Source of the DNA: Escherichia phage vB_EcoM_TH18
Strand: one strand, 5' to 3'
Sequence record: ON075799
DNA length: 64,000 bases
Part shown: positions 3,721 to 25,283 of the stretch, one piece after another
Layout: each line of letters starts with the position of its first letter
Position numbering within the stretch: the first letter of the stretch is position 1
Program-made: the position numbers and the translations under genes
Notes under the pieces: generated by a model
Seen by the model: the letters and a program-made list of their open reading frames with translations, nothing else
Told to the model about the DNA's origin: nothing
Database searches by the model: none

Positions 3721-3722
3721 AT

Positions 3723-6253: not shown

Positions 6254-6460
6254 TTAAACTATTCCAAAAGCCTTGACACCACGCTCGTATTCTGCTACTG
6301 CAAGCTCATGAGGAGAAAGGTCACATGAGGCATCCTTGCAAAGACCGACTTCGATGTAATGTTCTTCTAGTCCATCAAGGATATCTGGCTCCCACGCTTT
6401 TTTCATGTCTGGATGGACTGATGCACGATTTCTATCGTACTTCGCTACGAGATTTCTCAA
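6254..6460 (-). CDS. hypothetical protein (68 aa)
   Basis: Small ORF just downstream of the NAMPT gene on the same strand. Confidence 0.35.
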   Translation of the reverse strand: MRNLVAKYDRNRASVHPDMKKAWEPDILDGLEEHYIEVGLCKDASCDLSPHELAVAEYERGVKAFGIV

Positions 6461-6513
6461 AACATTCTCCTCAAAATAAAAACCCCTCCATGTGGAGGGG
6501 AATGATTATGGTG

Positions 6514-8229: not shown

Positions 8230-8292
8230 GATCTCAACCCTCCAACCTAAAAGCGTATTTTTTCACTAAAACGTATCTTTGTCAAGATGTAA

Positions 8293-9102
8293 TTAAAAAT
8301 TTTCTGTCCAGTCGTAGTACGCATAGATTTCGTCAACGCCACCGTTGAGAATAAATTCTTTCCCACGAGAGAAAATCCCATGCGTGACATACAAGATAAC
8401 ACGTTTAGCACCAGCAGCTTTCAAGGCTTGAGCTAAGTTTGTAAACGTAAACCCACCATCGCAGATATCATCAACAATCAGGCACATCTTCCCATCGACA
8501 TCACCAAACACTGTTGTGCCTGTGATTGCCCCTGTTCCCACATCACGGATTTTACCAGCTTCAACCACAGATAGTTCCAAGGCATCAGCTACCTTCTGGG
8601 TCTTCTTGCGTGCACCTGCATCTGGAGCAACCAACACAAGCGATTCGTCCGTAAGCAGATCAAAATCAAACTTCATGTTCAAGAACAATTCAGTCTGAGA
8701 ACGAATTTTCACGTTATCAAGCAGTGCTGCGGATACGTCACTGTGTGGGTCATCGACGATGACTTTGTGGAAACCCAGCGAGTTAATCATTGTGGCAAAG
8801 ACTTTCACCGACAGAGCTTCACCAGGGTTCATAACTCGGTCTTGTCGAGCATACGGGATGTACGGCAGGTGTAAAACCTTTTCCACACCAACATCCAAAT
8901 TGCCAAGACGATTGACTGCATCAACAAGCAACGCAAGACACATCACATCTTGGGAGTGCTTAATGCGAGCGAAGATATCCACAAAACCAATCGAACCCTT
9001 AGGGATATAGTGCATATCGATCTTCACCTGCTCCTCACCACCACTGAAGGTAAAATGGTCAACTGGAACATGCAACTTGTTCAAACTCAAACGAATATTC
9101 AT
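8293..9102 (-). CDS. prs: ribose-phosphate pyrophosphokinase-like (PRPP synthetase)
   Basis: 269 aa; PRPP-binding loop VDDICDGGFTF (type I phosphoribosyltransferase fold); next to NAMPT. Confidence 0.75.
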   Translation of the reverse strand: MNIRLSLNKLHVPVDHFTFSGGEEQVKIDMHYIPKGSIGFVDIFARIKHSQDVMCLALLVDAVNRLGNLDVGVEKVLHLPYIPYARQDRVMNPGEALSVKVFATMINSLGFHKVIVDDPHSDVSAALLDNVKIRSQTELFLNMKFDFDLLTDESLVLVAPDAGARKKTQKVADALELSVVEAGKIRDVGTGAITGTTVFGDVDGKMCLIVDDICDGGFTFTNLAQALKAAGAKRVILYVTHGIFSRGKEFILNGGVDEIYAYYDWTENF

Positions 9103-9540: not shown

Positions 9541-9859
9541 CCATATGTCCCCATTTCAGGGACATTATGATCTAATATAATATATATTATATAATATAAT
9601 TTAATATAATACTACGTATTATATATATTATAATATATATATATAATTTATATAAAATACACTAAGTCTTGAAGAATGTCAAGACTTGATTTTAAATATT
9701 TTTGTTGATATGATTCGATTGAGTCGAATCGTATGGTTCGATGATTTCGAATCATAGAGTTCATGTTGTTTTGCCTGAAATCGTGAGTCGATGAGACTCT
9801 TCAGGCAATACGTGAGTGTGTAAGATGCTCACTGCGCTGATAGCTTGTGATCATCTAAC
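9541..9859. promoter_or_regulatory. divergent intergenic control region: about 80-bp near-pure A/T tract (9585-9660) plus short palindromes and TCGA-containing repeats
   Basis: Composition and repeats read directly; lies between the leftward (tRNA/NAD) and rightward (small-gene) transcription units. Confidence 0.5.
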
Positions 9860-13064: not shown

Positions 13065-13273
13065 GTTTCAATAGTGGATATTTTCTTGATACTTTAAATT
13101 CCTACCAGAAATTTAAATTCTGTAAATTTAGAAAACTATTACTTATAGGCGTTTCGACACAATTTTGTTATGAAAGCCTTGTTTTTATATAAAAACCTGT
13201 TTTAGCATGGGTGGTAGGATCACACTCCATACTACCTTTATTCCTACAGATGAGCATCTCCATGTTCGAAAAC

Positions 13274-13458
13274 TCGGTTCTCGATCGAAAATTCATTTTC
13301 CAGATCGTATTTGCTCCTTACGGAGAAAATTTTTTAGGGCTACAAGTTTCAGTTCTCGATCGGTTTTTCGATTTCAAAATCGTATTTGTTTTTTCTTGCG
13401 AAATTTTTCGCACGCTCAGTTCTCGATCGAGTTTTCAAAATCGAAATCGTATTTGCTC
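13274..13458. repeat. iteron-like direct repeats (three units of about 42 bp containing GTTCTCGATCG ... ATCGTATTTG)
   Basis: Three imperfect direct repeats at about 13274, 13350 and 13417, plus a tgcgaaa/tttcgca palindrome between the second and third. Confidence 0.6.
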
Positions 13459-13860
13459 TATAGTGCGAAAAAATTTTTATGGGTATCATAATTCTATCAC
13501 ACACTTAAACGCAAAGCAACATAAAAATTTTTGTTGAATGATAATCATTCTCATTTGCAGAATGACAGGTAGGATCAGTGTCTTATCCTCCCCCGTTGAC
13601 CATCGTCGCCGTAGTTTGAAGTTTATAGCCGTTCTCGGCTTATCTCTTTGTTAGAGATAGATTACCATAATTGATAAAGAAAGCAAGCGTTAATTGTAAT
13701 CTTTACGTTTCTTTACAAATTTATTTTAGACAAACTACCGGCGATCGACCTTCCAACCAGCGCCCTGGTATGTTAGCCCCGCCTTTACGCCGTGGGGATG
13801 GCGTTGCCTCTTCTGTATGTTAGGCATTATAAGCCCAATCCCTGGGCTTGTCAAACATTT

Positions 13861-14124
13861 TTATTTATTTTCTTGCCAGGTTAGGACACCTAACCAGAAA
13901 TGGCAATCACCTTTCGCCCATTGTGGTATATTGCTTTCTTTCCCACCTTCCCGCGCCCAGGAATAACCGCCCGTGTAACTTTGTAATTGATAACTATCCT
14001 CGACCTTATAATCTGACAGGTTGAGAACTGTTTCTACCTTTAAGCCTGTTGCGCTCGCTACCTGGTGGATAGTTCCCCCTTGCCAGCCTAACGCGTGCAT
14101 AAGGTGCATTGTGGTAGTGGTCAT
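13861..14124 (-). CDS. hypothetical protein (87 aa), possible helix-turn-helix regulator, divergently transcribed
   Basis: AGAGGA ribosome-binding site; own sigma70-like promoter; segment GTIHQVASATGLKVETV weakly resembles a helix-turn-helix. Confidence 0.35.
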   Translation of the reverse strand: MTTTTMHLMHALGWQGGTIHQVASATGLKVETVLNLSDYKVEDSYQLQSYTGGYSWAREGGKESNIPQWAKGDCHFWLGVLTWQENK

Positions 14125-14156
14125 TTTTTCTATTCCTCTGTTAGTTGGTTGTCAGA

Positions 14157-14185
14157 ATTGTATCTATAACCAACCAGGTTAGCAA
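14157..14185 (-). promoter_or_regulatory. sigma70-like promoter (TTGCTA-17-TACAAT) for gene 13861-14124
   Basis: -35 and -10 hexamers with 17-bp spacer on the minus strand. Confidence 0.5.
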
Positions 14186-14220
14186 GATAAATAAAAGAGA
14201 AAAATTTTTTAAAAATACTA

Positions 14221-14249
14221 TTGACAGCTAGATAGTATAGGTCTACTAT
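14221..14249 (+). promoter_or_regulatory. sigma70 promoter (TTGACA-17-TACTAT) with AT-rich upstream element
   Basis: Consensus -35, 17-bp spacer; the upstream A/T tract is nearly identical to the one at 19246-19263. Confidence 0.6.
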
Positions 14250-14303
14250 GTGCACATCAAGGCGATACACCGCCACCAACCAACCTAAAAGGGGTAAATC
14301 AAT

Positions 14304-14927
14304 ATGAAAACCATTGTTAACGCTGAGAATGTATCTTTCGATAAGTTGAACGACGCACAAAAAGAAAAAGCCATTGATCTTATTCGTGAGCGTGAAAGAG
14401 AAAGCGCCGATAATTTCTTTGCGGATAGTGTCATTGAAGACTATAAGAATGACATTTTACCAGAGTACGGGATCGATGACGCGGTTATCTATTGGTCAGG
14501 ATTCTGGTCGCAAGGCGACGGCGCATCTATCAGCACTGATCGCGTGGATATTGAAAAATTTTTAAGAAAAGTTAAATCTTTAACAAAATTTAGAGGTATC
14601 CGCAAACTATTTGATCTTGGTGAATATAGTCAGTTATACGCAAGCATTGAGCGGGATAATTACAGCCGCTACCATCATGAAAATACTGTTTCCGGTTACG
14701 TTGAAACTATGTATTGTGGTGATTTAACGGCAAAACAGGAAGATCTAGCCAATCAGCTTGAAAACTTGTTAACTGAAACGATCCGCGATCTGTCTTGTAA
14801 ACTTTACAGAGATTTAGAATCAGCCTATGATGACCAGTTTACAGATGAAGCCATCACCGAATCAATTGAAGCCAATGATTATCGTTTTGATATTGATGAA
14901 GATGGAGAAGTTTACGCTATCGCTTAA
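14304..14927 (+). CDS. hypothetical acidic protein (207 aa)
   Basis: Ribosome-binding site AAAGGGGTAAAT; strongly D/E-rich. Confidence 0.6.
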   Translation: MKTIVNAENVSFDKLNDAQKEKAIDLIRERERESADNFFADSVIEDYKNDILPEYGIDDAVIYWSGFWSQGDGASISTDRVDIEKFLRKVKSLTKFRGIRKLFDLGEYSQLYASIERDNYSRYHHENTVSGYVETMYCGDLTAKQEDLANQLENLLTETIRDLSCKLYRDLESAYDDQFTDEAITESIEANDYRFDIDEDGEVYAIA

Positions 14928-15014
14928 AAGTACTTGCATTCAGTTTTAAAATAGTATTATACTACTAAAACAGGACGGGGAACTGCTCCCCGTCACATTC
15001 AGGAGATCATCAAA

Positions 15015-15227
15015 ATGGCTAATATTCGCACCTTGTTAAAAAATGCAAAGCAAGTTTTATTTTCCGATCACGATTATTTCAATAAAGACATTACAGGCGT
15101 AAAGAATATCAAAGACGTAAAAAATGTCATGGGTATCTATTGCAATATGAAGCGAGTAGGCACATTTGGCAATAAAGTATTATATCAGGCAGGTGACTAT
15201 AATTTTACTTTGACAATTATTTCATAA
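15015..15227 (+). CDS. hypothetical protein (70 aa)
   Basis: AGGAG ribosome-binding site; preceded by hairpin gacgggga-actgc-tccccgtc. Confidence 0.5.
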   Translation: MANIRTLLKNAKQVLFSDHDYFNKDITGVKNIKDVKNVMGIYCNMKRVGTFGNKVLYQAGDYNFTLTIIS

Positions 15228-15292
15228 AACCACTTGCAAAGTTATATAGCTCTGTTATACTACCAACATTGACAAACGAGAGGTAAATAAAA

Positions 15293-15649
15293 ATGGCAAT
15301 CCAGGCAATCATGTTAGAACTTACAGATTTCCGTAATACTGTAAAAAATTTATCTAAGAAACAGGTTGACAATATCATCAACGGATACCGTAGCAAGATT
15401 AAAGATCTTCCGCTTAAACGCGATCAACATGCGGCTAATATGATGTTTAATGCTATGATTAAAAAGATGATCCAATGTGATCTTTCTCTGGCTTATGAAT
15501 ACGCTGGCGATCTCTTTGCAACGTATAACAAGCCCGTGCTAGGTATGAGCACCACGGAAGAATTACACGCCTTAAATCTGCGGCAAGATGCTTGGGATAA
15601 TATGCACCGCGTTATGGTGTGGGTAGAAAGCGGTAAAATTTATCAATAA
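15293..15649 (+). CDS. hypothetical protein (118 aa)
   Basis: Promoter TTGCAA-16-TATACT at 15235-15262 and ribosome-binding site GAGAGGTAAAT. Confidence 0.55.
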   Translation: MAIQAIMLELTDFRNTVKNLSKKQVDNIINGYRSKIKDLPLKRDQHAANMMFNAMIKKMIQCDLSLAYEYAGDLFATYNKPVLGMSTTEELHALNLRQDAWDNMHRVMVWVESGKIYQ

Positions 15650-15703
15650 AAGTAGTTGACTTTTAGTTATGCCGTGATAGAATACACGGCATAGATAAGA
15701 GAA
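15650..15703 (+). promoter_or_regulatory. 54-bp repeated promoter/operator element, copy 1 (TTGACT ... TAGAAT with the -10 inside an 8-bp-stem palindrome)
   Basis: Direct repeat of 19883-19936 with one mismatch. Confidence 0.6.
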
Positions 15704-15725
15704 ACTACTTATCAGAGTTTAAAAG

Positions 15726-15944
15726 ATGAAAAATATTACGGGTAAAACCGAACTATTAAAGGCGCTTTCTGTTGGTGAGTCAGCTTTATGGGTATGTGAA
15801 AAAGATCGCCTACCATCGCGAGAGATGGCCTTATTTAAGGCTTTATCTCTGAAGCTGAAAATTAAATTATCCCAAAAATTAGCGGTTGTTGCCGCACCGA
15901 GGGAAACCGCTTTCAGTGTTGTAATGGTTAAACGGTTGGAGTAG
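15726..15944 (+). CDS. hypothetical protein (72 aa)
   Basis: Small ORF immediately downstream of repeated promoter copy 1. Confidence 0.5.
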   Translation: MKNITGKTELLKALSVGESALWVCEKDRLPSREMALFKALSLKLKIKLSQKLAVVAAPRETAFSVVMVKRLE

Positions 15945-16030
15945 AAAAAAATTAAAAATTATCTTGACAAGCAAAACAGCAAAAATTAAACTTACACACA
16001 GTTAAACAAACAATATTGACGAGGTAAATC

Positions 16031-16402
16031 ATGAAACAGTTAACCGCTTCCCAAAAAACAATGATCCGTGAGTATGTTTTAAATTCTCTTTCTTTTGATC
16101 TTGAATCTGATCTCAAACAAGATCAGATTCAAGAATTAAAAAACCGCTTTGAATCTGAATACTGGTACGATAGCAACAAGAAACGCTATCAAAATGATAA
16201 AGTACAAGGCCTTAAAAACTGGCTACAAGGCTTGCCAAGCGGTGTTGATATTGATTTCACTTATTACGATATTGAGCAACGCCTTAAGGATTTTGGAATC
16301 ATCACCGACACGACCAGAGAAAGCACCATTGAAAAATATGTTTCTGAGTGGTGGGATCTAGTAGCGCCGTTTTATGTGGGTCTGATCGTAAACTTAAAAT
16401 AA
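16031..16402 (+). CDS. hypothetical protein (123 aa)
   Basis: Promoter TTGACA-17-TAAACT at 15964-15992; ribosome-binding site GAGGTAAAT. Confidence 0.55.
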   Translation: MKQLTASQKTMIREYVLNSLSFDLESDLKQDQIQELKNRFESEYWYDSNKKRYQNDKVQGLKNWLQGLPSGVDIDFTYYDIEQRLKDFGIITDTTRESTIEKYVSEWWDLVAPFYVGLIVNLK

Positions 16403-16479
16403 TTCTTGAAAACTGTTTTAAATTGGCTTAAATTAAAGGGGTGAATTTAATCACCCCCAACATGAAAGAGGTTAATCAA

Positions 16480-16791
16480 ATGAATACTTATTTTTCTACT
16501 CGTTCACTTGCACGCATTGCAGCGAAAGAAACAGGCGGTAAAGTTTTAGACAATGGCAAAGATTCACCGATCGGTAAACGTTGGCAGGTTATCCCCGGTT
16601 ATGTTGTCGAAGCCTCCCAGGATACAGCAAAACAACGCGCGGAGATGGAAAATAAACCAGTAGTTACCTTATCCATCGGCAAGCGTAGCAATGTAGCGAA
16701 TAAAGCCCGTAAGGCGCTTTATTACGCCATCAATTACGCAAGAAATAATAAAACTGTACCAGTTTATCATAAGCGTTCATTTAAGAAATAA
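16480..16791 (+). CDS. hypothetical basic protein (103 aa)
   Basis: Ribosome-binding site AAAGAGGTTAAT before the ATG at 16480. Confidence 0.55.
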   Translation: MNTYFSTRSLARIAAKETGGKVLDNGKDSPIGKRWQVIPGYVVEASQDTAKQRAEMENKPVVTLSIGKRSNVANKARKALYYAINYARNNKTVPVYHKRSFKK

Positions 16792-16861
16792 TTTTTAATT
16801 AGATAAAAAAGCGCCCTAGGAAATGGGCGCTAAACAAAAACACTTAAAGAGGTAAATTATT

Positions 16862-17212
16862 ATGACTAATATTGCAGAAGCTTTTCAAAAAGCTATCGAA
16901 AATAAAAACGCTGAGTTGTCTTTAACTTCTCTGGATTTTACGGATGTGTACGGTAACACTTATTTTGTTTATGAGCTTGCTTTTACTTGTCCTGAGTTAA
17001 AAACATGGGAAACGTTGCATAAATCTCGCGAGCTGCAATATGGTTATGGCGATCATGTTCTTCATGTTGCAATGAAAGACCTTTCAACTATCGCCGAGGT
17101 AAAATCTGAGGCCGCATATATTACCCGTTGGGCGCATGACAACGGCTTAAAAATTAGTGTCAACAAGCGCACCAATTGCCGGAAAAAAGATTTAAAACAG
17201 TTTATCGCTTGA
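16862..17212 (+). CDS. hypothetical protein (116 aa)
   Basis: Ribosome-binding site AAGAGGTAAAT. Confidence 0.55.
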
Positions 17213-17237
17213 TCCTGTTAATCATCTTGGTGGTTGT

Positions 17238-17588
17238 ATGATTCAGTTTTATATAATCATCGCGGCGCTTGCAATTTACTTAGGATTGCACAAAAAAGTA
17301 TTCAGGTTAATTCTCTGGTTTTATTACGAGTACAGGATCAGAATGGTTTTCCATTATATTGAATACTCTTTCCACGGTGAGAGATACCACACAAGGAGAT
17401 CCGGCCCATTAAATGATCTTGAGGGAAACGGTTTAATCTGTGAGGTTAAAAAGCGTGGCGGGAAAATTCTTTACCACAAAGAGGGCACTTTTGATTATAT
17501 TGATGAGGTGATTAATTTTAGGCAACAAGCCGTAAAAGATCACGCAAGCAAAATAATCAACGGCAGCTATAAACGCAAAGCGGGGTAA
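17238..17588 (+). CDS. hypothetical protein with N-terminal transmembrane segment (116 aa)
   Basis: Hydrophobic N-terminus IIIAALAIYLGL. Confidence 0.5.
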   Translation: MIQFYIIIAALAIYLGLHKKVFRLILWFYYEYRIRMVFHYIEYSFHGERYHTRRSGPLNDLEGNGLICEVKKRGGKILYHKEGTFDYIDEVINFRQQAVKDHASKIINGSYKRKAG

Positions 17589-17589
17589 T

Positions 17590-17772
17590 ATGCGGAATTT
17601 TGAAAAAATTGTTAAAGCTAATCGCCTGGAATACGGGGAAACAGACGAAAAACGGGAACGGGTAGGCAAACGCCACAAGCCTAAAAAGGTTCCTAAATTG
17701 TGGTGCCCTGATAAATACGACCACAAATTAAAACAACGCATCGCTGAAAAACAGCGATTAAATGCAAGATAA
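17590..17772 (+). CDS. hypothetical basic protein (60 aa)
   Basis: Lys/Arg-rich ORF followed directly by a terminator. Confidence 0.45.
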   Translation: MRNFEKIVKANRLEYGETDEKRERVGKRHKPKKVPKLWCPDKYDHKLKQRIAEKQRLNAR

Positions 17773-17779
17773 CAGACAA

Positions 17780-17803
17780 GGCCGGAACTATCCGGCCTTT
17801 TTA
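17780..17803 (+). terminator. rho-independent terminator (ggccggaactatccggcc + TTTTT)
   Basis: GC-rich hairpin immediately followed by a T-run. Confidence 0.7.
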
Positions 17804-17991
17804 GCACCTAGTAGCGCCTGTAACGATTAAAAAGGCCAACGGTGGCATGATGCACCACAAAATAAAATAGCTCGTTAGAGAGTGTTTTAGAGGCCTTAAA
17901 ATCGATCCGAAAAATATCTATAAAAATGCTTGCAATGCTTTCCCGCTATCGTTATAGTGTTCCCAACAAGCAAGCAAACGAGGTAACGGCA

Positions 17992-18129
17992 ATGATTGAG
18001 ATTCTTAAAAATCCTATTTTGTGTGGTATGGTTGTTTCTGTGTCACTTCCGATCGTGCTGTTAGTCGTTAGCGAAATAGATGATTTTATTTTCAATAAAA
18101 GACTTGCCAACAAGTCAAAAACAAATTAA
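17992..18129 (+). CDS. small membrane protein (45 aa)
   Basis: Promoter TTGCAA-17-TATAGT upstream; ribosome-binding site CGAGGTAA; hydrophobic core. Confidence 0.35.
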   Translation: MIEILKNPILCGMVVSVSLPIVLLVVSEIDDFIFNKRLANKSKTN

Positions 18130-18166
18130 TATAGTACCAACATACTAACTAGCGAGGTGATTTAAT

Positions 18167-18385
18167 ATGTTTGGTTTTATTGTTCTATCTTGTTCTCTTT
18201 CTGTTACTGCTGCAAAGGTAGAATGTAACTACACTGTAAAAGAGACTTTTAATGATGAAAAGTCTTGCAATGTATACGAAAATAATTATAAACTAGGAGA
18301 CGGGGAGCAGTTCGGGATCTGTGATGAATTAAAGGACGGTATCAAGAAAGGCGATAAGCGCCCGATCTTGGTCCTGAAAAAATAA
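18167..18385 (+). CDS. small secreted or periplasmic protein (72 aa, signal-peptide-like N-terminus, 4 Cys)
   Basis: N-terminal hydrophobic segment ending in AAK; ribosome-binding site GCGAGGTGAT. Confidence 0.5.
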   Translation: MFGFIVLSCSLSVTAAKVECNYTVKETFNDEKSCNVYENNYKLGDGEQFGICDELKDGIKKGDKRPILVLKK

Positions 18386-18426
18386 TTTTTCTAATCATGT
18401 TGATCAATTTTTAAGAGGTGAATAAA

Positions 18427-18714
18427 ATGTTTGAAGTTTTCGCGGGTATGTGTTTTTATACAGCTTTGGCAATTCGTCAGTGTGATGATTATATCGTTGA
18501 ATCATACGATGATCAGCTGACTTGCGAAATAGTCGCTAATGACTACGGCAAAAAAGATCGCTGGATTAATCCGGCTTGCATACCATCCCCAGAGGTAGAA
18601 GCCATGCCGGAAGGGGAAGAGGTATCAGATCCAGTTGTGGCGGTATCCTCCTTTTTCGTTGACAACCTGGACGCCCAAGAATTGATCGACATGTATGTAA
18701 AAAATCAAAAATAA
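18427..18714 (+). CDS. hypothetical protein (95 aa)
   Basis: Ribosome-binding site AAGAGGTGAAT before the ATG at 18427. Confidence 0.5.
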   Translation: MFEVFAGMCFYTALAIRQCDDYIVESYDDQLTCEIVANDYGKKDRWINPACIPSPEVEAMPEGEEVSDPVVAVSSFFVDNLDAQELIDMYVKNQK

Positions 18715-18716
18715 CG

Positions 18717-18754
18717 CTTGACGTTGATTTGTGCCGCTTTATAATAGGCGGCAT
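18717..18754 (+). promoter_or_regulatory. sigma70 promoter TTGACG-17-(T)ATAAT with the -10 inside the palindrome tgccgc...gcggca
   Basis: Hexamers plus a 6-bp inverted repeat flanking the -10. Confidence 0.5.
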
Positions 18755-18804
18755 AGGCAAGCGAAAGCGGATATAAATCTTAAACAAGTTAAGAGAGGTA
18801 AATC

Positions 18805-19125
18805 ATGGAACAAGCGAATAAATTTTTCTTTCTGGCTGGGATCGTGGATAATGTGAAATGTGATTTCAAGCGTGAAAATGATAAGACGTTACTCACTTTC
18901 TGCGATATGCTTGATCATGAGAATGCCGACACGTTACGAATCGAGATCCGCACGATAACCAATATCGACAATTTAAGCCGTTTAATTTATAAATCTCATT
19001 CTATAGCCTACAACCTGGAAACATCAACAAGCTGCCTCCAACAAGGAGAGAGCTTGCCCATTCTAAATAGTGCCGATGTATTTGGCGCGGTTGTTGCAAT
19101 TGTAAATGATGTTTTTTCTCGTTGA
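18805..19125 (+). CDS. hypothetical protein (106 aa)
   Basis: Ribosome-binding site AGAGAGGTAAAT. Confidence 0.5.
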   Translation: MEQANKFFFLAGIVDNVKCDFKRENDKTLLTFCDMLDHENADTLRIEIRTITNIDNLSRLIYKSHSIAYNLETSTSCLQQGESLPILNSADVFGAVVAIVNDVFSR

Positions 19126-19263
19126 TTGGTGTTAATATTATGTTAGAGAATATTGTGTTCTTGTGTGGTGTCGTTCTTGCTGTTGTGGTTGGCCTCCTGG
19201 CGACGATGGCGAATATTGTGATCTCAAACAACCTGGCAGGGTAAAAATTTTTAAAAATAGTAT

Positions 19264-19291
19264 TGACATACTTGCGGCATATGGTATTATT
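19264..19291 (+). promoter_or_regulatory. sigma70 promoter (TTGACA-16/17-TATTAT) with repeated AT-rich upstream element
   Basis: The upstream A/T tract plus -35 nearly duplicates 14199-14226. Confidence 0.6.
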
Positions 19292-19341
19292 TACCACATG
19301 AAGGGGCAAGATTGACTTGCCTCACTAACGAAAGGTAAATA

Positions 19342-19611
19342 ATGATGAACATTTCTAAAACTACTTTTAACTTTGCTAAAAAGCGCGGTATTGAGCTTGA
19401 GCTGATCGAAGCGGATGATCGCTTGGTCCTGGCTTTTTATGAGGCTAAAAATGAATGTGAATGGATGTTCTCTTATAATGTTAATCATGATTGCCTAACA
19501 TGGCGCGGCAATATCTATCTTTCAAACGAAGTAAAAGAGGAGTTACCCGCCACGATCACGACTGAGAAAAAACTACGTGAGGTTATTGATTTCATCTCTA
19601 AAAATATCTAA
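19342..19611 (+). CDS. hypothetical protein (89 aa)
   Basis: Ribosome-binding site GAAAGGTAAAT. Confidence 0.5.
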   Translation: MMNISKTTFNFAKKRGIELELIEADDRLVLAFYEAKNECEWMFSYNVNHDCLTWRGNIYLSNEVKEELPATITTEKKLREVIDFISKNI

Positions 19612-19658
19612 GATTACATGAAAAGGGGCGAAAGCCCCTACCGAAGAAGGTAATAAAA

Positions 19659-19883
19659 ATGGATAAAGTAACAAAGATTGAGCATGAGGTAATTGACTTG
19701 GCACGGGCCAACAAGCCATTTGATAAGATTTATTCTAAGGAGAATAAAGAGATCTTGAAAGACCTAACGCAAGGTCAAAAAGATGGCTTGCGCCGCTTAT
19801 ATCGTGAGGCGTATGACTATTTTCGTTGGTGGGAAATAGAAGAGGCTAACGCGAAAATAGAAGGCCTAGAAAATTTAGTATAA
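19659..19883 (+). CDS. hypothetical protein (74 aa)
   Basis: Ribosome-binding site GAAGGTAAT; preceded by hairpin gggcgaaagcccc. Confidence 0.5.
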   Translation: MDKVTKIEHEVIDLARANKPFDKIYSKENKEILKDLTQGQKDGLRRLYREAYDYFRWWEIEEANAKIEGLENLV

Positions 19884-19936
19884 AAGTAGTTGACTTTTAG
19901 TTATGCCGTGATAGAATGCACGGCATAGATAAGAGA
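19883..19936 (+). promoter_or_regulatory. 54-bp repeated promoter/operator element, copy 2
   Basis: Direct repeat of 15650-15703 with one mismatch. Confidence 0.6.
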
Positions 19937-19978
19937 GACGGCACAAGCCATTGATTAAACTTAAAGAGGTAAATTATT

Positions 19979-20380
19979 ATGAATACTTACAAAACTGTTT
20001 TTAATTTCGACAATTTCAAAGCTATCTGCGACGACCAGATCGGCAAGTGCCGTAAAGAAAAAGGATTCTATAAATCTTATAAGTTGATTGCGGTTGTTGA
20101 TGAAGAGATCACCGAAGTGGCAACGCTCAACCTGTACCACACTAACGCTACTAATTACGCTTGCTTATGGATGCACTGGGCCAATATTAAAGGTTGGGAT
20201 CATGGCTATGTTGGCGGGAAAGCAAGCGGATACGGTTACAACAGGGAGGAGGCCGCGATCCATGTCGCAGCTAATAAACTCGGTATCACTGGCAACTGGT
20301 TTAACGGTGAACAATTGTTAGATGCAATGGCACGTAATTTTGATATGAAAGGCGCGAAGGTTATCTGCTGCAACGCGTGA
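19979..20380 (+). CDS. hypothetical protein (133 aa)
   Basis: Ribosome-binding site AAAGAGGTAAAT. Confidence 0.55.
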   Translation: MNTYKTVFNFDNFKAICDDQIGKCRKEKGFYKSYKLIAVVDEEITEVATLNLYHTNATNYACLWMHWANIKGWDHGYVGGKASGYGYNREEAAIHVAANKLGITGNWFNGEQLLDAMARNFDMKGAKVICCNA

Positions 20381-20427
20381 TCACTCAATAGCGGGGAATA
20401 TTCCCCGCTTATAGATAGGGCATAATC

Positions 20428-20886
20428 ATGATTTACGATCTTAAATATTACGACGAATTGAGTATTGCAGCACAATTAACCGCCCGTGTCAATATTATAG
20501 CAGACCTGGAAAATCACCATAGAAAGCGCATAGTCCAGACTATAGCCAGTTTTAAAAATGATCCTCATAAAGTGATTAATGACACGAAGCACATTCAACG
20601 CCTCATAAACGGCGCAAAGACGCTTTATAGTGTACGTCATTACGGGGATGATTACCTTATAAAGTTTATTCGTGATAATCGTTTGATCTTTACCCCTGGT
20701 GGTAGCTATATAACCTATAGCGACGGCTTTATGATGATTATTGGAGGTAAGGAATACACCCCCACGGCCTCACAACAAAAAGCATTGAGAGAGCTTTATA
20801 TAGCCATTAATGAGCGTGGTCAATCATATCATGATTGGTTATATAGAATGCACCACAAAATAAAAATTTTTATGATTCCCGCTTGA
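20428..20886 (+). CDS. hypothetical protein (152 aa)
   Basis: ORF preceded by hairpin ggggaatattcccc. Confidence 0.55.
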   Translation: MIYDLKYYDELSIAAQLTARVNIIADLENHHRKRIVQTIASFKNDPHKVINDTKHIQRLINGAKTLYSVRHYGDDYLIKFIRDNRLIFTPGGSYITYSDGFMMIIGGKEYTPTASQQKALRELYIAINERGQSYHDWLYRMHHKIKIFMIPA

Positions 20887-20964
20887 CACCTACATAAAAA
20901 CGCCTTATTATCTATCTCATAAGGCGGGGAGCGGTTCCCCGCCACACTTAAGAGGTAAATAATC

Positions 20965-21354
20965 ATGCGTAACCTGGTTCATGTTTCCAACGTTGAAAAA
21001 TTCCAATCTTTACAGGCTATCGTAAACGATACAGCGCCTTTTATCGTTAAAGGCTTGATTGCCAGAATGCAACAGAAAAAACCTGAAATCTGGGCTAATT
21101 ATTGCCTTGATAATGATGATCAGGCTGCCGCTTTCATGGTTGGCGAACTGCTGGGAAGTGTAGGGAACATGCTACCGGAAAACATCGCAGAAGAGATCAC
21201 CTACCGTTATAATATGGCGATAACTTATCAGGAAGTCGCACAATTTAACCTGATGGATGACGACGAACAACAGGATCAGGAAATTTTCTGGGAGTATGCC
21301 GACCGCCAAGCCGTTTTTGATGAGCGGTTAGAGATGTACTATAACGAATGGTAA
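20965..21354 (+). CDS. hypothetical acidic protein (129 aa)
   Basis: Promoter TTGACA-17-TATTAT at 20883-20911; ribosome-binding site TAAGAGGTAAAT. Confidence 0.55.
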   Translation: MRNLVHVSNVEKFQSLQAIVNDTAPFIVKGLIARMQQKKPEIWANYCLDNDDQAAAFMVGELLGSVGNMLPENIAEEITYRYNMAITYQEVAQFNLMDDDEQQDQEIFWEYADRQAVFDERLEMYYNEW

Positions 21355-21359
21355 TAAAC

Positions 21360-21389
21360 AGGCCGCTAATATGCGGCCTTTAATTTTTC
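21360..21389 (+). terminator. rho-independent terminator (aggccgc-taatat-gcggcct + T-run)
   Basis: Hairpin followed by TTTAATTTTT. Confidence 0.65.
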
Positions 21390-21450
21390 TATTGACAATA
21401 TCGCACTAACCTTTAAAATGTTCTTTGTTAAGTATCTTTAAAGGTGTAAC

Positions 21451-21630
21451 ATGTTCCAATCAATCATTGATATTCTATCAGTCGCTAATAACGTGATGAA
21501 CGTAATTACAATGATTAAACTTGTTGCGTGGTTTGTTTCCGGGGATTATCGCTATATTAAATGGCGCAAGCCAACCATAAAAGACGTAGTGAAGATCTCA
21601 TTTGAAGCAATGACAGAATATTATCTATAA
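21451..21630 (+). CDS. hypothetical small protein (59 aa; below the ORF-track cutoff)
   Basis: Promoter TTGACA-16-TAAAAT at 21393-21420, ribosome-binding site AAAGGTG, and an open frame translated by hand. Confidence 0.35.
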   Translation: MFQSIIDILSVANNVMNVITMIKLVAWFVSGDYRYIKWRKPTIKDVVKISFEAMTEYYL

Positions 21631-21986
21631 CGATTATTTTTTGTTGACATCCAAAAGATTTTTCAATACCATTGATCACATAAGGGCGGCAATGATGCTG
21701 CCCACAACTGAAAGAGAAATCACCATGGCGCTTAAAAAACTAACAAGTAATACACGTTGGGATGAAATCGGCGGGGAAGTATACATTTTTACCCGTAAAC
21801 CAGGTGACCAAAAATGATCAAAGGCTTTTACTTGCCACCCTGCAACCATAGACCTGATAAAAAGGGAAGGTTTACGCGAAGCAGTAGCAAGAAGTTTACT
21901 GATCCCTTATAAAAAATAGTTTGAAATTAATTTCACTATTGATAAAATATTATATAAAACTTTAACCTAAAAAGGGGTAAATTAAT

Positions 21987-22187
21987 ATGAAACGTTTTAC
22001 TTATGGTGTGGTTGATGGTTATGTATCTAACCGTTTTTACAATACCGAGCGTGGTGCTAAAAATGCGGCTACCCGTGAACATGGCAATAGTGTAAATTTA
22101 CAAGTTGGCTATATTAGCAAAATTAGCGGTATGTTTATTCCGGTTGCTCAACGCGGCATGTATTGCATAAACTGGATGCCAATGTAA
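21987..22187 (+). CDS. hypothetical protein (66 aa)
   Basis: Ribosome-binding site AAAAGGGGTAAAT. Confidence 0.5.
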   Translation: MKRFTYGVVDGYVSNRFYNTERGAKNAATREHGNSVNLQVGYISKISGMFIPVAQRGMYCINWMPM

Positions 22188-22202
22188 AAAGGAGTAATAA
22201 AA

Positions 22203-22394
22203 ATGGATGTATCACAAGTTAGAAAGGTATTAGCAGCGTTACGCTATCACAATCATAGCAAGGTGAAGAATGATCCTGATTATGTTGATTCAAGTCTGGA
22301 GGAAGACACCTTGCAAGCTATAAGCCATATGCAGGAATTGCTTAAGCGTATGACAGAGAAGAACAGATCTGACTATATAGGTGACGAGATCTAA
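22203..22394 (+). CDS. hypothetical protein (63 aa)
   Basis: Ribosome-binding site AAAGGAGTAAT. Confidence 0.5.
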   Translation: MDVSQVRKVLAALRYHNHSKVKNDPDYVDSSLEEDTLQAISHMQELLKRMTEKNRSDYIGDEI

Positions 22395-22490
22395 TCTTTA
22401 CAATCTCGCCTATTGACACCGGATCACGCTTACATTATTATCTATCTTGTAGGGCAAGCAATACCGCAAGCCCACAAAGAGGACAATAAA

Positions 22491-22859
22491 ATGAGCAAAT
22501 CAGCAATTAAAGCACTTGAAAAAGCGCAAAAAGTGATCGCTACTTCCACCACTGGCGCAAGTATTAATCTGATCGCTTACTTGGAAGATGAAACTATCCG
22601 TAAAAATTGGCGTAATACTGATTTGCTGGCTTGCTTATTGATTAATAGTGTTGCTAATGCTTTCCAGTGTGAAACAGCCGAGAGCCTGGAAGAAAACTTG
22701 TTTGACAATATGGATCAAGCCATTGAAACCTATATCCAATCAAATCTGGATAGCTGGAACAGTAAAACATGGCCCGACAGCTTACGCGATACAACTGACC
22801 AACTGATCCGCCTTGCGGTGATGGTTGAACGCGATAACGTTTACAGCCGCACAAAGTAA
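22491..22859 (+). CDS. hypothetical protein (122 aa from internal ATG)
   Basis: Promoter TTGACA-17-TATTAT at 22415-22443; ribosome-binding site AAGAGGA before the ATG at 22491. Confidence 0.55.
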   Translation: MSKSAIKALEKAQKVIATSTTGASINLIAYLEDETIRKNWRNTDLLACLLINSVANAFQCETAESLEENLFDNMDQAIETYIQSNLDSWNSKTWPDSLRDTTDQLIRLAVMVERDNVYSRTK

Positions 22860-22867
22860 GATAGTAC

Positions 22868-22897
22868 AAAGGGCGCTTAATGCGCCCTTTCTTTTTG
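22868..22897 (+). terminator. rho-independent terminator (aagggcgc-ttaa-tgcgccctt + T-run); end of the plus-strand module
   Basis: Hairpin followed by TCTTTTTG. Confidence 0.7.
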
Positions 22898-22929
22898 CCC
22901 TAACAAACATGATAAGTTTTATCTATCAA

Positions 22930-23230
22930 AACACCACACAGAAAGAAAGTGAATAAAACGCGGTATCGAGCTAAACGAGGGTGGGCAATACAACGGCAAG
23001 GCTAAACAATTAAGGCTGTTATAACGCGATTTAGGCCGCTTAAAATCGATCCCCACCACAAACAACACCCACAAAATGACCAAAACGACACAACATGACT
23101 TAAATGATAACCATTCCCAACAACATAAGCATTTTTATGCAATTTGAGTGAATATCTATTTAAATGATAATGACTCTCAACAACAAACTAACACGACCGA
23201 AGCGATTCAATCGCCTACCACAAAATTAAT
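22930..23230. repeat. C/A-rich, G-poor tract with repeated CACCACA(C)A motifs and a 28-bp imperfect direct repeat (about 23098 and 23158)
   Basis: Motifs read from sequence; reverse-complement orientation of the TGTGTGG motifs at 24044-25283. Confidence 0.5.
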
Positions 23231-23284
23231 CACTTGTAAAGAGTAATTTGAAAAAAGCTGCGTAGGTGGCGCGACCGTAGGGAG

Positions 23285-23361
23285 CGACACAATAACGCAG
23301 TAGTAGCCCCTCACCCCTCCTTCCAGTCGCCCCCGGTATCGGGGCAGCGTTATTGTGTCGC
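23285..23361. repeat. 15-bp perfect inverted repeat (gcgacacaataacgc / gcgttattgtgtcgc) around a 47-nt C-rich loop
   Basis: Exact reverse-complement match read from the sequence. Confidence 0.8.
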
Positions 23362-23373
23362 TAAGCGACAACG

Positions 23374-23437
23374 CGTTAACAATTTTGCAAGATTTTATTA
23401 ATACTTTAACTGTTATAATTTTATTGCAAAATTGTTA
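23374..23437. repeat. 16-bp perfect inverted repeat (gttaacaattttgcaa / ttgcaaaattgttaac), 32-bp spacer
   Basis: Exact reverse-complement match read from the sequence. Confidence 0.8.
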
Positions 23438-23444
23438 ACCTACT

Positions 23445-23555
23445 GCGTTATTGTGTCACGTAGTGATTAGTTACATATGTAACTAACAGCTATCACTGCA
23501 AAATTGTGTCACGTAGTGATTAGCTGAGAATCAGCTAACCCGTAAAACGGGCTAA
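23445..23555. repeat. direct repeat ATTGTGTCACGTAGTGATTAG (two copies), each followed by a palindrome (ttagttacatatgtaactaa; agctgagaatcagct), then cccgtaaaacggg
   Basis: Exact repeats and palindromes read from the sequence. Confidence 0.75.
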
Positions 23556-23799
23556 ATTGTGTCCGGTACGGATGAGATAATCTCTCATTAATCCCCGATT
23601 ATTACGCAGTAAATCACCATGAATCACCTGTTTTTAACCCTGTTATTGTGTTCTTGCCCAGGGATAACCGCTTACTATGCGGTTAAATGCTGTATAGTCG
23701 CTACGCGATTAAGCGCGATGCGCTTAACCTGCAAAGCAGGCTTCTAAGTGCCTGAAATGCCAGATCAATTTGGTCACTGCGTGATCATGATTGCGACAA

Positions 23800-23995
23800 T
23801 AATTTGCTTATGATTTGCTATTTATTTGTTTGTAGTTGGTTATAGTTGTTATGGTTTGTTTGTTAATAGTTGCTATAATTTTGCTTTATTTGATTTTATT
23901 TGTTAAACACCCTTTTATCATTCCTCTTACATTTTCGCAATATTTATTTTTGTTATCGTTTTCCCTCATTTCATTTCGTTATTGAAAACAAGAAT
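23800..23995. repeat. AT-rich tract of short phased T/G-rich repeats (GTTAT, TTTGTT)
   Basis: Composition; possible DNA-unwinding or bending element. Confidence 0.4.
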
Positions 23996-24043
23996 TATTA
24001 TCAATGCGCCTTAACAGGCTGACAGGTCTGTTAGTGGGCTAGC

Positions 24044-25283
24044 TCTCTGTGTGGTTATGTGTCGGCTGTTATTGTTAGCTTGCTTATTGTTGTGTGGTGT
24101 ATGTACCAGTTAACTAGTACATTGTGTGGTGCGCATAACGTGTATTATGTTAAATCGCTAAGCCCACAAATCAGGTGACTTGTCAATAACAATAAGTGCT
24201 GTGTGCGGTAGGTCTGACCTATCAGTGTGCCCCTTTGTTGTGTGGTGCTTCCAATGGCTGGTCTGCCTGCTGTCTGTGCTGCGTCAGGAATCGAGGGGAC
24301 TCGATCGCAATAGCTGTAAGATATTTTGTAAAGATTCGTAGTTTTTCTTGACACCCACAATCGTCTGCCTAACCCTTCAGAGATAAATACTTCAGAGATT
24401 TATCTGGGCTTTTTACCCTTCAGGTATAGAGACGTGTGTTTTATCCCTCACTTCTGAGATAAAGCCGTAGATATTTTCACTCTTCACATCATGTGCAAGT
24501 TAATACATGTATGTCTTTACAGACGGGGTGGGGTAACAATCAGGAAGTGGTCTGGCAGTGATAACGCACTGGATAAAAGCTCTGTGTGGATTGTCGATGA
24601 TATTTGTGTGTGTGGGAAATGCTGATAGGCAAGAGATAAGACACTTGTCTCCGGCAGGGGTGGGGTGTGGAAAAGAAATGGGCCTGTCCGACCCATTGTG
24701 TTACAGAGATGAAACGCCTATCTCACCATTGACCAGGTAAGCCAATATCAAGGCCAAATTCGTGACATTCATCCCAGTCAAGACTTTGATTCCAGTTTGT
24801 AACTGTTTGCTCTGTGTGGTGGGTGTGTGATGCTCTCTGTGACTGCTTGGGCATCTTTTTTGTCTGGGATTTCCCGAAGAGAGGTGTGTTGTCATTAAGT
24901 CTTCCGGCAGCCTTTTCACCCTTTTTGACTTGTCTCCCACGGGCATTCCACTGCTCCAGTGTCCTGTAACACATAAAATGATTCTCCTGTAATATCTGGT
25001 GTGGGAATGATAGTGGAGAATGTCAGTCGTGTCAAGTAGGTTGCTCAGAGGCGCTATTATAAAAATTTTTTGGTGGCTTTCTGGGGCTTGTTGTGGGACT
25101 GTAAACAAGCTGTGGAGCCAGATGTGACGGGGCTTTCAGCCATGTTGTGTGTTGATAGCAAATAAGGATAAAATAATCAATATAAATGCGGATAAATGTT
25201 GTTTTATTGCGGTTGTGTGACTAGTGTGTCAATTCTTGATAGGCTATGTCTTGTACATATTTTGTACAATTGTGTGGTGTGTG
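24044..25283. repeat. dispersed same-orientation TGTGTGG(T)(G) motif, at least 7 copies
   Basis: Copies at about 24044, 24087, 24121, 24235, 24580, 24810 and 25268; no convincing ORFs in the region. Confidence 0.6.

Follow-up and report, generated by a model that had tools for sequence, protein, structure and literature searches.

Positions 14199-22897 of a stretch of 64,000 nucleotides (nt) from Escherichia phage vB_EcoM_TH18 (sequence record ON075799; the whole stretch is called the window here) are occupied by a module of small genes on the + strand. The genes are accompanied by recurrent signals, namely a promoter of the host sigma70 type, a hairpin and a ribosome-binding site (RBS). The most likely explanation for the uniformity of these signals is that promoter, hairpin and RBS form composite cassettes, which have been duplicated, exchanged and used as crossover points. 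The features of the module are collected in Table 1.

Relatives of the module

The module is 100% identical to three partial Escherichia phage records (18-1-2, 19-1-2 and 24-2-1). Phage Av-05 (Vequintavirinae, Avunavirus) matches it at 93% identity over 86% of its length. The Stephanstirmvirinae (phAPEC8- and phi92-like phages), which form another subfamily, share only short patches with it, at 77-94% identity. By these sequence comparisons, the source of the window is a coliphage of the Vequintavirinae (rV5-like, Avunavirus-like).

Genes and gene products

The + strand of the module holds 25 ATG-initiated open reading frames (ORFs) of 30-207 amino acids (aa). For the 20 that align without gaps to Av-05, the ratio of the proportions of nonsynonymous and synonymous differences (pN/pS) is 0.12 (pS 0.226, pN 0.026), which identifies the ORFs as real genes under purifying selection. 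An earlier reading of this DNA, made from the sequence only, had counted about 25 small genes. This number needs a small correction. The gene g21 stops at a TGA codon (21815-21817) where the phages Schickermooser and UAB_1 have TGG; its homologues are annotated as 74 aa long, with about 62 codons from the equivalent ATG. Either the truncated gene has recently become a pseudogene, or its stop codon is read through. Because of this truncation, the overlapping out-of-frame ORF “g22” (21814-21912) is probably no gene, and a count of 24 genes is used below.

PHROG families are matched by 22 of the 25 ORFs, and every one of these families is labelled “unknown function”. The exceptions are g20 and g22, which have no match, and g14, whose match is marginal (E=1.4e-5). 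The search of NCBIfam with the module products gave no match. Across the family searches, no annotated family was found above its curated cut-off, apart from one match each for g09 and g15. Residues 1-33 of g09 match Pfam family PF08200 (Phage_1_1, the T7 gene 1.1 protein) with 27.9 bits against a gathering cut-off of 21, and this is the only Pfam match above cut-off that has a phage-related meaning. The match of g15 is marginal (PF04265, 23.0 against 22 bits, 35 residues) and is probably due to chance. The earlier statement that the products lack a recognisable enzymatic motif agrees with these searches.

Structure prediction had been suggested as a check on the products. Confident AlphaFold models were available for g01 (AF2 pLDDT 91.7) and g17, and neither predicted structure has a fold neighbour in the PDB. 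No resemblance to a virion or structural protein was found among the module products. The family of g01 comprises 298 homologues with an invariant QG.G motif; one homologue, at 33% identity, sits in a similar small-gene array of an unrelated viral contig. A weak paralogy links g11 and g12, which have signal-like N-termini and three cysteines. The description of the products as often acidic or membrane-type is fair, but as many are basic as acidic (10 of the 25 ORFs each), and a hydrophobic segment occurs in 5-7.

One annotation in a relative deserves mention. The homologue of g02 in Av-05 (70 aa, at 6821-7033 of the Av-05 stretch) is annotated as “phosphoribosylpyrophosphate synthetase”, a label which has been carried into the notes of other records. 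It is almost certainly an annotation error.

Promoters

Near-consensus sigma70 promoters were defined as sites with at least 10 of the 12 consensus positions, with a stricter cut at 11 or more, and were compared with 500 dinucleotide shuffles. The + strand of the module has 12 sites at the first cut, compared with 2.36 +/- 1.5 (maximum 8) in the shuffles, and 5 at the second, compared with 0.20 +/- 0.44. Only 2 sites at the first cut lie on the - strand of the module. The 12 strong sites make up 12 of the 16 found on the + strand of the entire 64 kb, and 11 of them fall in the non-coding 20% of the region. At most sites, an A/T-tract resembling an UP element lies directly 5' of the -35 box, for instance AAAAATTTTT(T)AAAAATASTATTGACA at 14196 and 19238.

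All ten promoter positions proposed in the sequence-only reading were recovered within a few bases. It had also given almost every gene a promoter of its own, which is too many: there are about 14 promoters for 24 genes. The remaining genes lie in operons of 2-5 genes with gaps of 1-47 nt, or behind a promoterless hairpin. A weak promoter-like site before g06 (16406-16434) is not kept in Av-05. The promoter density of the module is, as proposed, above that of 10-14 kb and 24-64 kb, but the tRNA block at 1-9.7 kb has about 0.8 promoter sites per kb on its own strand.

A second class of promoters combines a weaker -35 box with a good -10 box. It follows the pattern CTTGCW-N17-20-TATAST, which was derived from three module sites (14933, 15233 and 17929, all +) and has a sole independent match, at 34663 (-). 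These promoters may be a weaker or differently timed class. A related site, TTGCTTTA...TATAGT, precedes the g25 homologue in Schickermooser and ASO2A. A reading of the CTTGCA promoters as T4 MotA boxes was dropped, since the likeness to TGCTT is partial and the spacing does not fit (15 nt, as opposed to 11-13 nt in T4).

Ribosome-binding sites

The sequence GAGGTAAAT has six copies on the + strand of the window. All six lie in the module, each directly before an ATG, and a single copy lies on the - strand. With a crude gene call, RGGTRA is found upstream of 14 of 21 module genes compared with 7 of 72 other genes, and GGTAAAT upstream of 9 of 21 compared with 0 of 72. The RBS of the GAGGTAAAT type is specific to the module and not phage-wide. 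The claim of a uniform RBS is overstated in one respect: the exact sequence AGAGGTAAAT has only 5 copies.

Composite cassettes

When 15 cassettes are aligned on their -35 and -10 boxes, the signals follow in one order. First comes an AT-rich stretch with the upstream stop codon, then the -35 box, the -10 box, a stem-loop, the Shine-Dalgarno (SD) sequence and the ATG. The stem-loop has its G-rich arm first, and the SD sequence is GAGGT with an A-rich spacer. In total, 14-15 such cassettes are found in 8.7 kb.

Some cassettes are copies of one another. For example, an 82-nt cassette at 15624-15705 is repeated at 19858-19939 (85% identical), and the two copies precede unrelated genes. The cassettes fall into overlapping sub-families; P-g19 and P-g25, for instance, have TTATTATCTATCT in common. 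Around the RBS, g07 and g17 are identical in 26 of 27 nt.

The Stephanstirmvirinae have the same design in a more uniform version, with 13-18 strong + strand promoters per 11-13 kb. Most of these promoters are followed by the leader GTATCAC(G/A)TAGGGCGG-loop-CCGCC(C/T)CACAA, of which five leaders in the window are variants. A near-identical leader GTATCACGTAGGGCGG..CCGCC follows at least 14 promoters in 11.6 kb (Schickermooser stretch 34-9088; ASO2A stretch 240-4352). The annotation of ASO2A likewise lists pairs of a promoter and then a “terminator” before genes, so that a hairpin stands between a promoter and its gene. A scan of IMG/VR for the promoter-plus-leader pattern gave mostly single matches, which are probably due to chance. 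Clusters of 5-6 copies were found only on contigs of about 150 kb, and 2 copies were present on each of two further contigs, of 97 kb and 279 kb.

Exchange of cassettes between phages

In the alignments with relatives, recombinant junctions lie within the cassettes. The clearest example is the g21 cassette. The 324 nt at 21652-21975, which comprise the spacer and -10 box of P-g21, the hairpin, g21 and P-g23, correspond to 64 nt in Av-05. On the left, the sequence common to both phages stops within the -35 box (TTGACATC), and on the right it resumes at the RBS. The same cassette is 91% identical to Schickermooser and UAB_1, phages of another subfamily, with homology that begins at the base of the hairpin.

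P-g25 is a recombinant of two Schickermooser/ASO2A cassettes. Its promoter half corresponds to the Schickermooser/ASO2A promoter of a different gene, and its leader half to the next intergenic region of these phages; the intervening gene is missing from the window. The two halves meet in GTAGGGC, the sole stretch common to all five sequences. Promoters can also differ before the same gene. Here g02 has a CTTGCA-type promoter and a different hairpin, as opposed to the TTGACA promoter and consensus hairpin of the relatives. In the case of g19, hairpin and gene are kept and the promoter differs.

In this small sample, junctions lie inside cassettes in 4 of the 5 indels examined (the g21 cassette, the gene missing at P-g25, g02 and g19). 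Among about 17 distinct end-points of BLAST alignment segments (high-scoring segment pairs), about 12 are intergenic. Such end-points are expected of any gene-wise mosaic, and for this reason the argument is carried by the anatomy of the junctions at g21, P-g25, g02 and g19. Since the cassettes are alike both within the genome and among related phages, they provide portable homology for the exchange of single genes.

Hairpins and their position

The intergenic sequences of the module fold far more stably than expected by chance. The summed minimum free energy of 20 spacers has z = -13.5 relative to shuffles, compared with a mean z of -0.77 for coding controls. For 14 of the 20 spacers, at most 2.3% of shuffles are as stable.

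The hairpins occupy different positions. Seven lie in the first ~25 nt of a leader (g01, g02, g06, g15, g19, g21 and g25), and three are intercistronic within an operon (ahead of g07, g16 and g18). At four or five promoters the -10 hexamer is enclosed by a hairpin (P-g04, P-g13, P-g15 and P-g17; at P-g20, the -10 region is paired with the SD sequence). The pairing at g20, ACCTTTAAA/TTTAAAGGT, is possible in read-through transcripts only. Most of 36 leaders have a core stem that starts 11-12 nt past the -10 box, or at about +4 to +6 from predicted start sites, and extended pairing starts from 8 nt. The 5' arms of these 36 leaders contain 192 G and 72 C, and the 3' arms are C-rich.

The GC hairpins had been taken for separators of neighbouring genes. 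Their stability is beyond doubt, but simple separators they are not, most of them lying in a leader or over a -10 box. It is unlikely that they are Rho-independent terminators insulating every gene. A U-tract on the + strand follows only 3 of about 17 hairpins (17778-17799, 21360-21379 and 22868-22890), and the leader hairpins of the relatives are followed by A-rich sequence. Moreover, most hairpins lie downstream of the predicted start of the promoter that they accompany, where an efficient terminator would abort the mRNA of its own unit. Three observations nevertheless speak for terminators: a consensus scan finds 22 terminator-like sites where 11.1 +/- 3.6 are expected, the ASO2A annotation has WebGeSTer/TransTermHP calls at the corresponding hairpins, and the stem-loop of a promoter-early stem-loop (PeSL) cassette lowered reporter read-through in phages RB49/phi1 (PMC2839356).

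Selection on cassettes and stems

Compared with Av-05, the intergenic sequences diverge by 7.3% and the synonymous sites by 22.6%. Eleven substitutions fall in stems, and pairing is kept in 10 of them (made up of 4 double compensatory events in the hairpins of g15, g17 and g19 and 2 changes by way of G.U); 8 more changes lie in loops.

An example is the g15 leader, in which GGGGCAAG/CTTGCCTC has become GGGGAGAG/CTCTCCCC in Av-05 through two double compensatory events and one change from G.U to G-C. In the repeat at g17, one compensatory change replaces G-C by A-U, and one pair is disrupted. The G-C to A-U change at g19 would break an alternative pairing with the -10 region, which indicates that the leader hairpin is the selected form. 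The same hairpin shows a further compensatory pair in the comparison with ASO2A and UAB_1. Compensatory changes of this kind show selection for base pairing and not for a fixed sequence, and they argue against a single sequence-specific operator.

RNAalifold found no consensus structure in a MAFFT alignment of 30 leaders, because stems of differing length are out of register. Leaders were therefore folded one by one, and compensatory changes were counted in pairs of sequences. No part of the module matched a known RNA family in Rfam.

Proposed working of the module

The module is probably an early small-gene region, in which 24 genes are organised in about 14 short units and served by portable PeSL-like cassettes for both expression and exchange. 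In this model, unmodified E. coli RNA polymerase would start transcription at all promoters on entry of the DNA into the cell. In a unit's own mRNA, the stem-loop would stand at the 5' end and act as a protective 5'-terminal structure. Within read-through RNA, these hairpins and the intercistronic ones that lack a promoter may act as decay barriers or partial attenuators, and full termination would take place at the three canonical terminators only. The uniform RBS, with GAGGT and A-rich sequence, would then give strong translation.

The pairing between the -10 region and the SD sequence at g20 would silence translation from read-through RNA and leave the transcript of g20 itself unaffected. 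The principle of SD sequestration in read-through RNA is familiar from the lysozyme transcripts of T4.

As sequence comparison shows, the likeness of the cassettes also allows single genes to be gained, lost or swapped together with their own signals. By analogy, an early action of the products on the host would be most likely, and host takeover may be the role of the module. A literature search found no transcriptome or expression data for rV5-, phi92- or phAPEC8-like phages; “immediate-early” is for this reason a putative timing.

Several points weigh against the model. The authors of the rV5 genome found sigma70-like promoters genome-wide (PMC3606486), so that such a promoter alone is no proof of early timing. 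The folding stabilities of sense and antisense strands do not differ significantly (22 vs 14, p = 0.33). This comparison did not discriminate between the strands, and action as sense RNA is accordingly likely, not demonstrated. The unpaired 5' tail predicted ahead of the core stem, about 3-5 nt long, reaches the upper limit for classic protection, a limit that comes from work on ompA. As for exchange, Av-05 lacks g25 through a deletion whose ends are two TTTACA hexamers, the first situated just before P-g25 and the second within the 3' end of g25; this reflects microhomology and not cassette homology. Finally, any gene-wise mosaic would be expected to have its breakpoints at the edges of genes.

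Alternative explanations

The sequence-only reading had proposed a host-takeover or anti-defence region driven by host-type promoters. The promoters are indeed strong and have UP-like stretches, but anti-restriction is disfavoured. The BASEL study describes Vequintavirinae and relatives as “exceptionally susceptible” to restriction-modification (RM) systems (PMC8594841), which argues against effective anti-restriction genes in the module. That the module is a specific anti-defence island (anti-restriction, anti-CRISPR or against abortive infection, anti-Abi), as opposed to a general takeover or accessory region, is quite unlikely on further grounds: its products match no annotated family, and the confident predicted fold of the acidic g01 is unlike the Ocr or ArdA-type mimics in the PDB. 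An island of this kind would nonetheless fit products that are small, often acidic and highly variable among relatives, and genes with a cassette-like arrangement and a quick turnover, as in known anti-defence loci.

A dedicated phage factor could also recognise the G-first leader stem-loop; it would be either a recombination function or an RNA-binding or RNA-cleaving factor that switches off early mRNA. This reading is given a small chance. What suggests it is that sequence, and not structure alone, is kept across more than 25 cassettes: the leader consensus of the phi92/phAPEC8 relatives is CACGTA-GGGCGG...CCGCCC-ACAAC, with variants in the window. In addition, four junctions coincide with the 5' base of the stem or lie no more than about 20 nt from it, and the multi-copy clusters in IMG/VR are found mainly on contigs of about 150 kb. 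If a structure-specific recombination factor exists, the array would be an integron-like cassette system; an RNA-binding or RNA-cleaving factor would switch off all early mRNAs at once.

An equally improbable explanation takes the inverted repeats centred on the -10 box for operators, at which a phage-encoded dimeric repressor shuts off early transcription. Half-sites differ between promoters of the same genome, and the stems change by compensation, which a fixed protein-DNA code disfavours. The arms are asymmetric, with the G-rich arm first, and many hairpins lie beyond the polymerase footprint, in leaders or in promoterless gaps. On the other side, the repeats flank or overlap the -10 box at four or five promoters (P-g04, P-g13, P-g15, P-g17 and P-g20), the motif CGGCATA is present at four such promoters (8 copies in the window compared with 3.8 expected), and the leader CACGTAGGGCGG is kept in sequence, not in structure alone, among relatives. 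As candidates for a single repressor operator, both motifs tried were rejected: CGGCATA is confined to one cassette sub-family, and TTATCTATCT is not clearly enriched.

Finally, it is very doubtful that the promoter-like sites are used throughout infection or never, so that the module is not temporally early; the rV5 paper, with promoters spread over the genome and host polymerase modification that might not occur (PMC3606486), and the lack of a transcriptome found for the three phage groups would allow it, but the sites are concentrated, intergenic, conserved and equipped with UP-like regions, which marks them as functional, and strong sigma70 promoters need no phage factor, so that they would be active at least from the start of infection.

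Comparison with known systems

PeSL cassettes have been described in the T4-like phage pairs RB49/phi1, PST/T4 and nt-1/KVP40 (Arbiol 2010, PMC2839356; Comeau 2014, PMC4122927). They consist of AT-rich upstream sequence, sigma70 boxes, a stem-loop “most commonly between -35 and -10 or overlapping the -10” with polyG and then polyC, an SD sequence and an ATG (PMC2839356). Promoter activity, attenuation by the stem-loop and the formation of mini-circles also belong to the description of the family. The module resembles it in several respects. Its composites are intergenic, run within about 100 bp from a stop codon in an AT-rich stretch to an ATG, and keep the same order. The position of the stem-loop relative to the promoter varies, with a G-tract and then a C-tract. 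Many copies are clustered among small, poorly conserved ORFs or ORFans. Indel or replacement breakpoints between relatives fall in cassettes, with crossovers between the -10 box and the SD sequence or at the stem-loop.

There are also differences. The host of the cassettes belongs to the Vequintavirinae and is not T4-like, many hairpins lie in the transcribed leader without a U-tract, and the related Stephanstirmvirinae have a leader conserved in sequence (CACGTAGGGCGG). The eight papers in the searchable literature that mention PeSLs report them for T4-like phages only. Because the phage is outside the T4-like scope of the PeSL family, the array is filed as “PeSL-like” and not as a member of the T4 set. 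With the architecture and the comparative pattern of PeSLs, and with an activity predicted from sequence, the module would be a functional equivalent of the T4-like cassettes. The PeSL-type arrangement is known; its presence in the rV5-like phage group, where the composite and its role in exchange were undescribed, is new.

SPO1's host-takeover module is similar in layout. It has about 24-26 mostly small genes in short operons, with strong early-type promoters and RBSs. It belongs, however, to a Gram-positive phage of an unrelated lineage and lies in the terminal redundancy. Several SPO1 products shut off host synthesis or are toxic; the likeness is one of layout.

Closer in kinship is the “genes 11-26” unit of rV5, a phage of the same subfamily, for which 33 sigma70-like promoters were predicted genome-wide (Kropinski 2013, PMC3606486). 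At the level of layout, the two have in common a rightward block, divergent promoters and a bidirectional terminator by a “non-coding” box. The rV5 paper (PMC3606486) lists promoters and terminators, without composite cassettes, leader hairpins, a module-specific RBS or exchange. The GenBank annotations likewise give promoters and “terminators” but no composite.

Two further systems resemble single aspects of the cassettes. Integron gene cassettes with folded attC sites, which Arbiol et al. compared with PeSLs (PMC2839356), likewise consist of single promoter-proximal genes that move as units and are flanked by imperfect repeats able to form hairpins. In the module, by contrast, each cassette has its own promoter, no integrase or dedicated recombinase was identified, and exchange fits ordinary homologous or microhomology recombination.

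The second is the mRNA stabiliser of the ompA 5' untranslated region type, a 5'-terminal stem-loop reportedly described by Emory, Bouvet and Belasco in 1992. The likeness is a stable hairpin a few nt from the mRNA 5' end, here a predicted one; the difference is that the predicted unpaired tail may be 3-5 nt here.

Table 1. Promoters, hairpins and genes of the module in order of position in the window
Feature	Position	Strand	Description
P-g01	14221..14249	+	TTGACA-17-TACTAT; UP-like 14196-14220, 87% identical to 19238-19268
Leader hairpin g01	14261..14274	+	GGCG-atacac-CGCC; unchanged in Av-05
g01	14304..14927	+	207 aa, acidic, isoelectric point (pI) 4.4; phrog_5162
P-g02	14934..14963	+	second class, cTTGCAT-18-TATACT
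Leader hairpin g02	14974..14994	+	GACGGGGA-actgc-TCCCCGTC, no U-tract; Av-05: loop changes and one A-U to G.U
g02	15015..15227	+	70 aa; common to Stephanstirmvirinae, 79-85% nt identity
P-g03	15234..15261	+	second class, TTGCAA-16-TATACT, TG extension
g03	15293..15649	+	118 aa; phrog_7352
P-g04	15656..15683	+	TTGACT-16-TAGAAT, within 82-nt repeated cassette 15624-15705
Inverted repeat at P-g04	15668..15693	+	9 bp, TATGCCGTG-N8-CACGGCATA round -10; intergenic z = -8.5
g04	15726..15944	+	72 aa, basic; phrog_5988
P-g05	15964..15992	+	TTGACA-17-TAAACT; probably heads operon g05-g09
g05	16031..16402	+	123 aa; phrog_11100
Hairpin before g06	16438..16457	+	GGGGTGA-atttaa-TCACCCC
g06	16480..16791	+	103 aa, basic; phrog_8127
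Intercistronic hairpin before g07	16810..16831	+	AGCGCCC-N8-GGGCGCT; A-run upstream, no + U-tract; Av-05: loop change only
g07	16862..17212	+	116 aa; phrog_6246
g08	17238..17588	+	116 aa, hydrophobic N-terminal segment
g09	17590..17772	+	60 aa, basic, T7 gp1.1-like
Canonical intrinsic terminator after g09	17778..17799	+	hairpin, then TTTTT
P-g10	17930..17958	+	second class, TTGCAA-17-TATAGT
g10	17992..18129	+	45 aa, one transmembrane-like segment
g11	18167..18385	+	72 aa, signal-peptide-like N-terminus, 3 Cys
g12	18427..18714	+	95 aa, acidic
P-g13	18718..18745	+	TTGACG-16-TATAAT
Inverted repeat at P-g13	18732..18753	+	TGCCGC-N10-GCGGCA round -10; z = -5.2
g13	18805..19125	+	106 aa, acidic
g14	19140..19244	+	34 aa, transmembrane-like
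P-g15	19263..19290	+	TTGACA-16-TATTAT, TG extension
Leader hairpin g15	19303..19323	+	GGGGCAAG-attga-CTTGCCTC; two double compensatory changes vs Av-05
g15	19342..19611	+	89 aa
Intercistronic hairpin before g16	19624..19639	+	AGGGGC-gaaa-GCCCCT
g16	19659..19883	+	74 aa
P-g17	19890..19917	+	TTGACT-16-TAGAAT, second copy of 82-nt cassette (19858-19939)
Inverted repeat at P-g17	19902..19927	+	TATGCCGTG-N8-CACGGCATA round -10; one compensatory and one disruptive change vs Av-05
g17	19979..20380	+	133 aa
Intercistronic hairpin before g18	20390..20409	+	AGCGGGGAA-ta-TTCCCCGCT
g18	20428..20886	+	152 aa, basic
P-g19	20883..20911	+	TTGACA-17-TATTAT; TTATTATCTATCT in common with P-g25
Leader hairpin g19	20923..20943	+	GGCGGGGA-gcggt-TCCCCGCC; compensatory G-C to A-U vs Av-05
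g19	20965..21354	+	129 aa, acidic, pI 4.2; hairpin and gene 77% nt identity to Stephanstirmvirinae
Canonical intrinsic terminator after g19	21360..21379	+	bidirectional-looking
P-g20	21392..21419	+	TTGACA-16-TAAAAT
Pairing at g20	21409..21445	+	9 bp ACCTTTAAA/TTTAAAGGT, -10 region to g20 RBS
g20	21451..21630	+	59 aa, hydrophobic N-terminal half; no PHROG match
P-g21	21644..21672	+	TTGACA-17-TACCAT; left breakpoint of cassette absent from Av-05
Leader hairpin g21	21684..21703	+	GGGCGGCA-atga-TGCTGCCC, Stephanstirmvirinae consensus type; homology to those phages begins here
g21	21725..21817	+	30 aa, truncated by TGG>TGA
P-g23	21921..21948	+	TTGAAA-16-TAAAAT, TG extension
g23	21987..22187	+	66 aa, basic
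g24	22203..22394	+	63 aa; 94% nt identity to Schickermooser
P-g25	22413..22441	+	TTGACA-17-TATTAT; drives different gene in Schickermooser and ASO2A
Leader hairpin g25	22452..22473	+	GGGCAAGC-N6-GCAAGCCC; crossover at shared GTAGGGC at base
g25	22491..22859	+	122 aa, acidic; absent from Av-05, 88-90% nt identity to Stephanstirmvirinae
Canonical intrinsic terminator closing module	22868..22890	+	hairpin and U-tract

Surroundings of the module

The + strand block to which the module belongs extends over about 10.1-22.9 kb, and the module takes up its right two-thirds. To the left of this block lies a - strand block rich in tRNA genes, with 15 of them. The tRNA cluster itself (1-5604, -) is interspersed with TTGACA-type promoters (e.g. 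3156, 4875, 5653, 6253 and 8285), which have neither the GAGGTAAAT RBS nor leader hairpins. At the divergent junction of the two blocks, 9560-9760 contains extremely AT-rich simple repeats (units TAATA/TATAATATAAT, about 95 nt), followed by inverted and direct repeats of the GATTCGA type; three promoter-like sites there point left.

Directly left of the module, an 87-aa gene at 13861-14124 (-), called Av05_0025 in the Av-05 annotation, is divergent to P-g01, which makes 14130-14303 a divergent promoter region. Next to it, at 13826-13854 (-), is a perfect 12/12 sigma70 promoter (TTGACA-17-TATAAT) with a hairpin, AGCCCA-gggat-TGGGCT, inside its spacer. It faces left into an ORF-poor stretch with three direct repeats of about 71 nt at 13265-13477. 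An Rfam search of 13265-13477 and the 13826-13854 area found no match. A non-coding RNA or an element with a part in replication may be encoded or located here.

To the right of the module, the DNA is ORF-poor from 22.9 to about 25 kb, and a long - strand block follows. Past the last terminator of the module, 22900-25000, and especially 23344-23576, contains ATTGTGTCACGTAGTGATTAG repeats about 53 nt apart and other short repeats. A “non-coding” box has a comparable position in rV5. In UAB_1, about 1 kb lies between the end of the equivalent block and the right terminal repeat of the annotation, for which no homology was found in the window. Within the long - strand block, 41892-42132 (-) is a group I intron (Rfam RF00028, 79.8 bits, full-length model match).

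Significance

Phages of the rV5, phAPEC8 and phi92 types are among the most often isolated coliphages and are popular candidates for therapy, and their gene regulation is essentially unstudied. An array of PeSL-like cassettes will not surprise a phage biologist, but it is useful for annotating and engineering rV5-like phages. It gives a map of about 14 transcription units and three terminators, and makes the 24 products a defined set of candidates for host-takeover or toxicity screens. For engineering, the cassettes themselves offer strong expression units ready for use and natural “landing pads”. The cassette view also explains how single genes move between subfamilies that otherwise have little DNA in common, and it extends the modular shuffling known from PeSLs beyond the T4-like phages.

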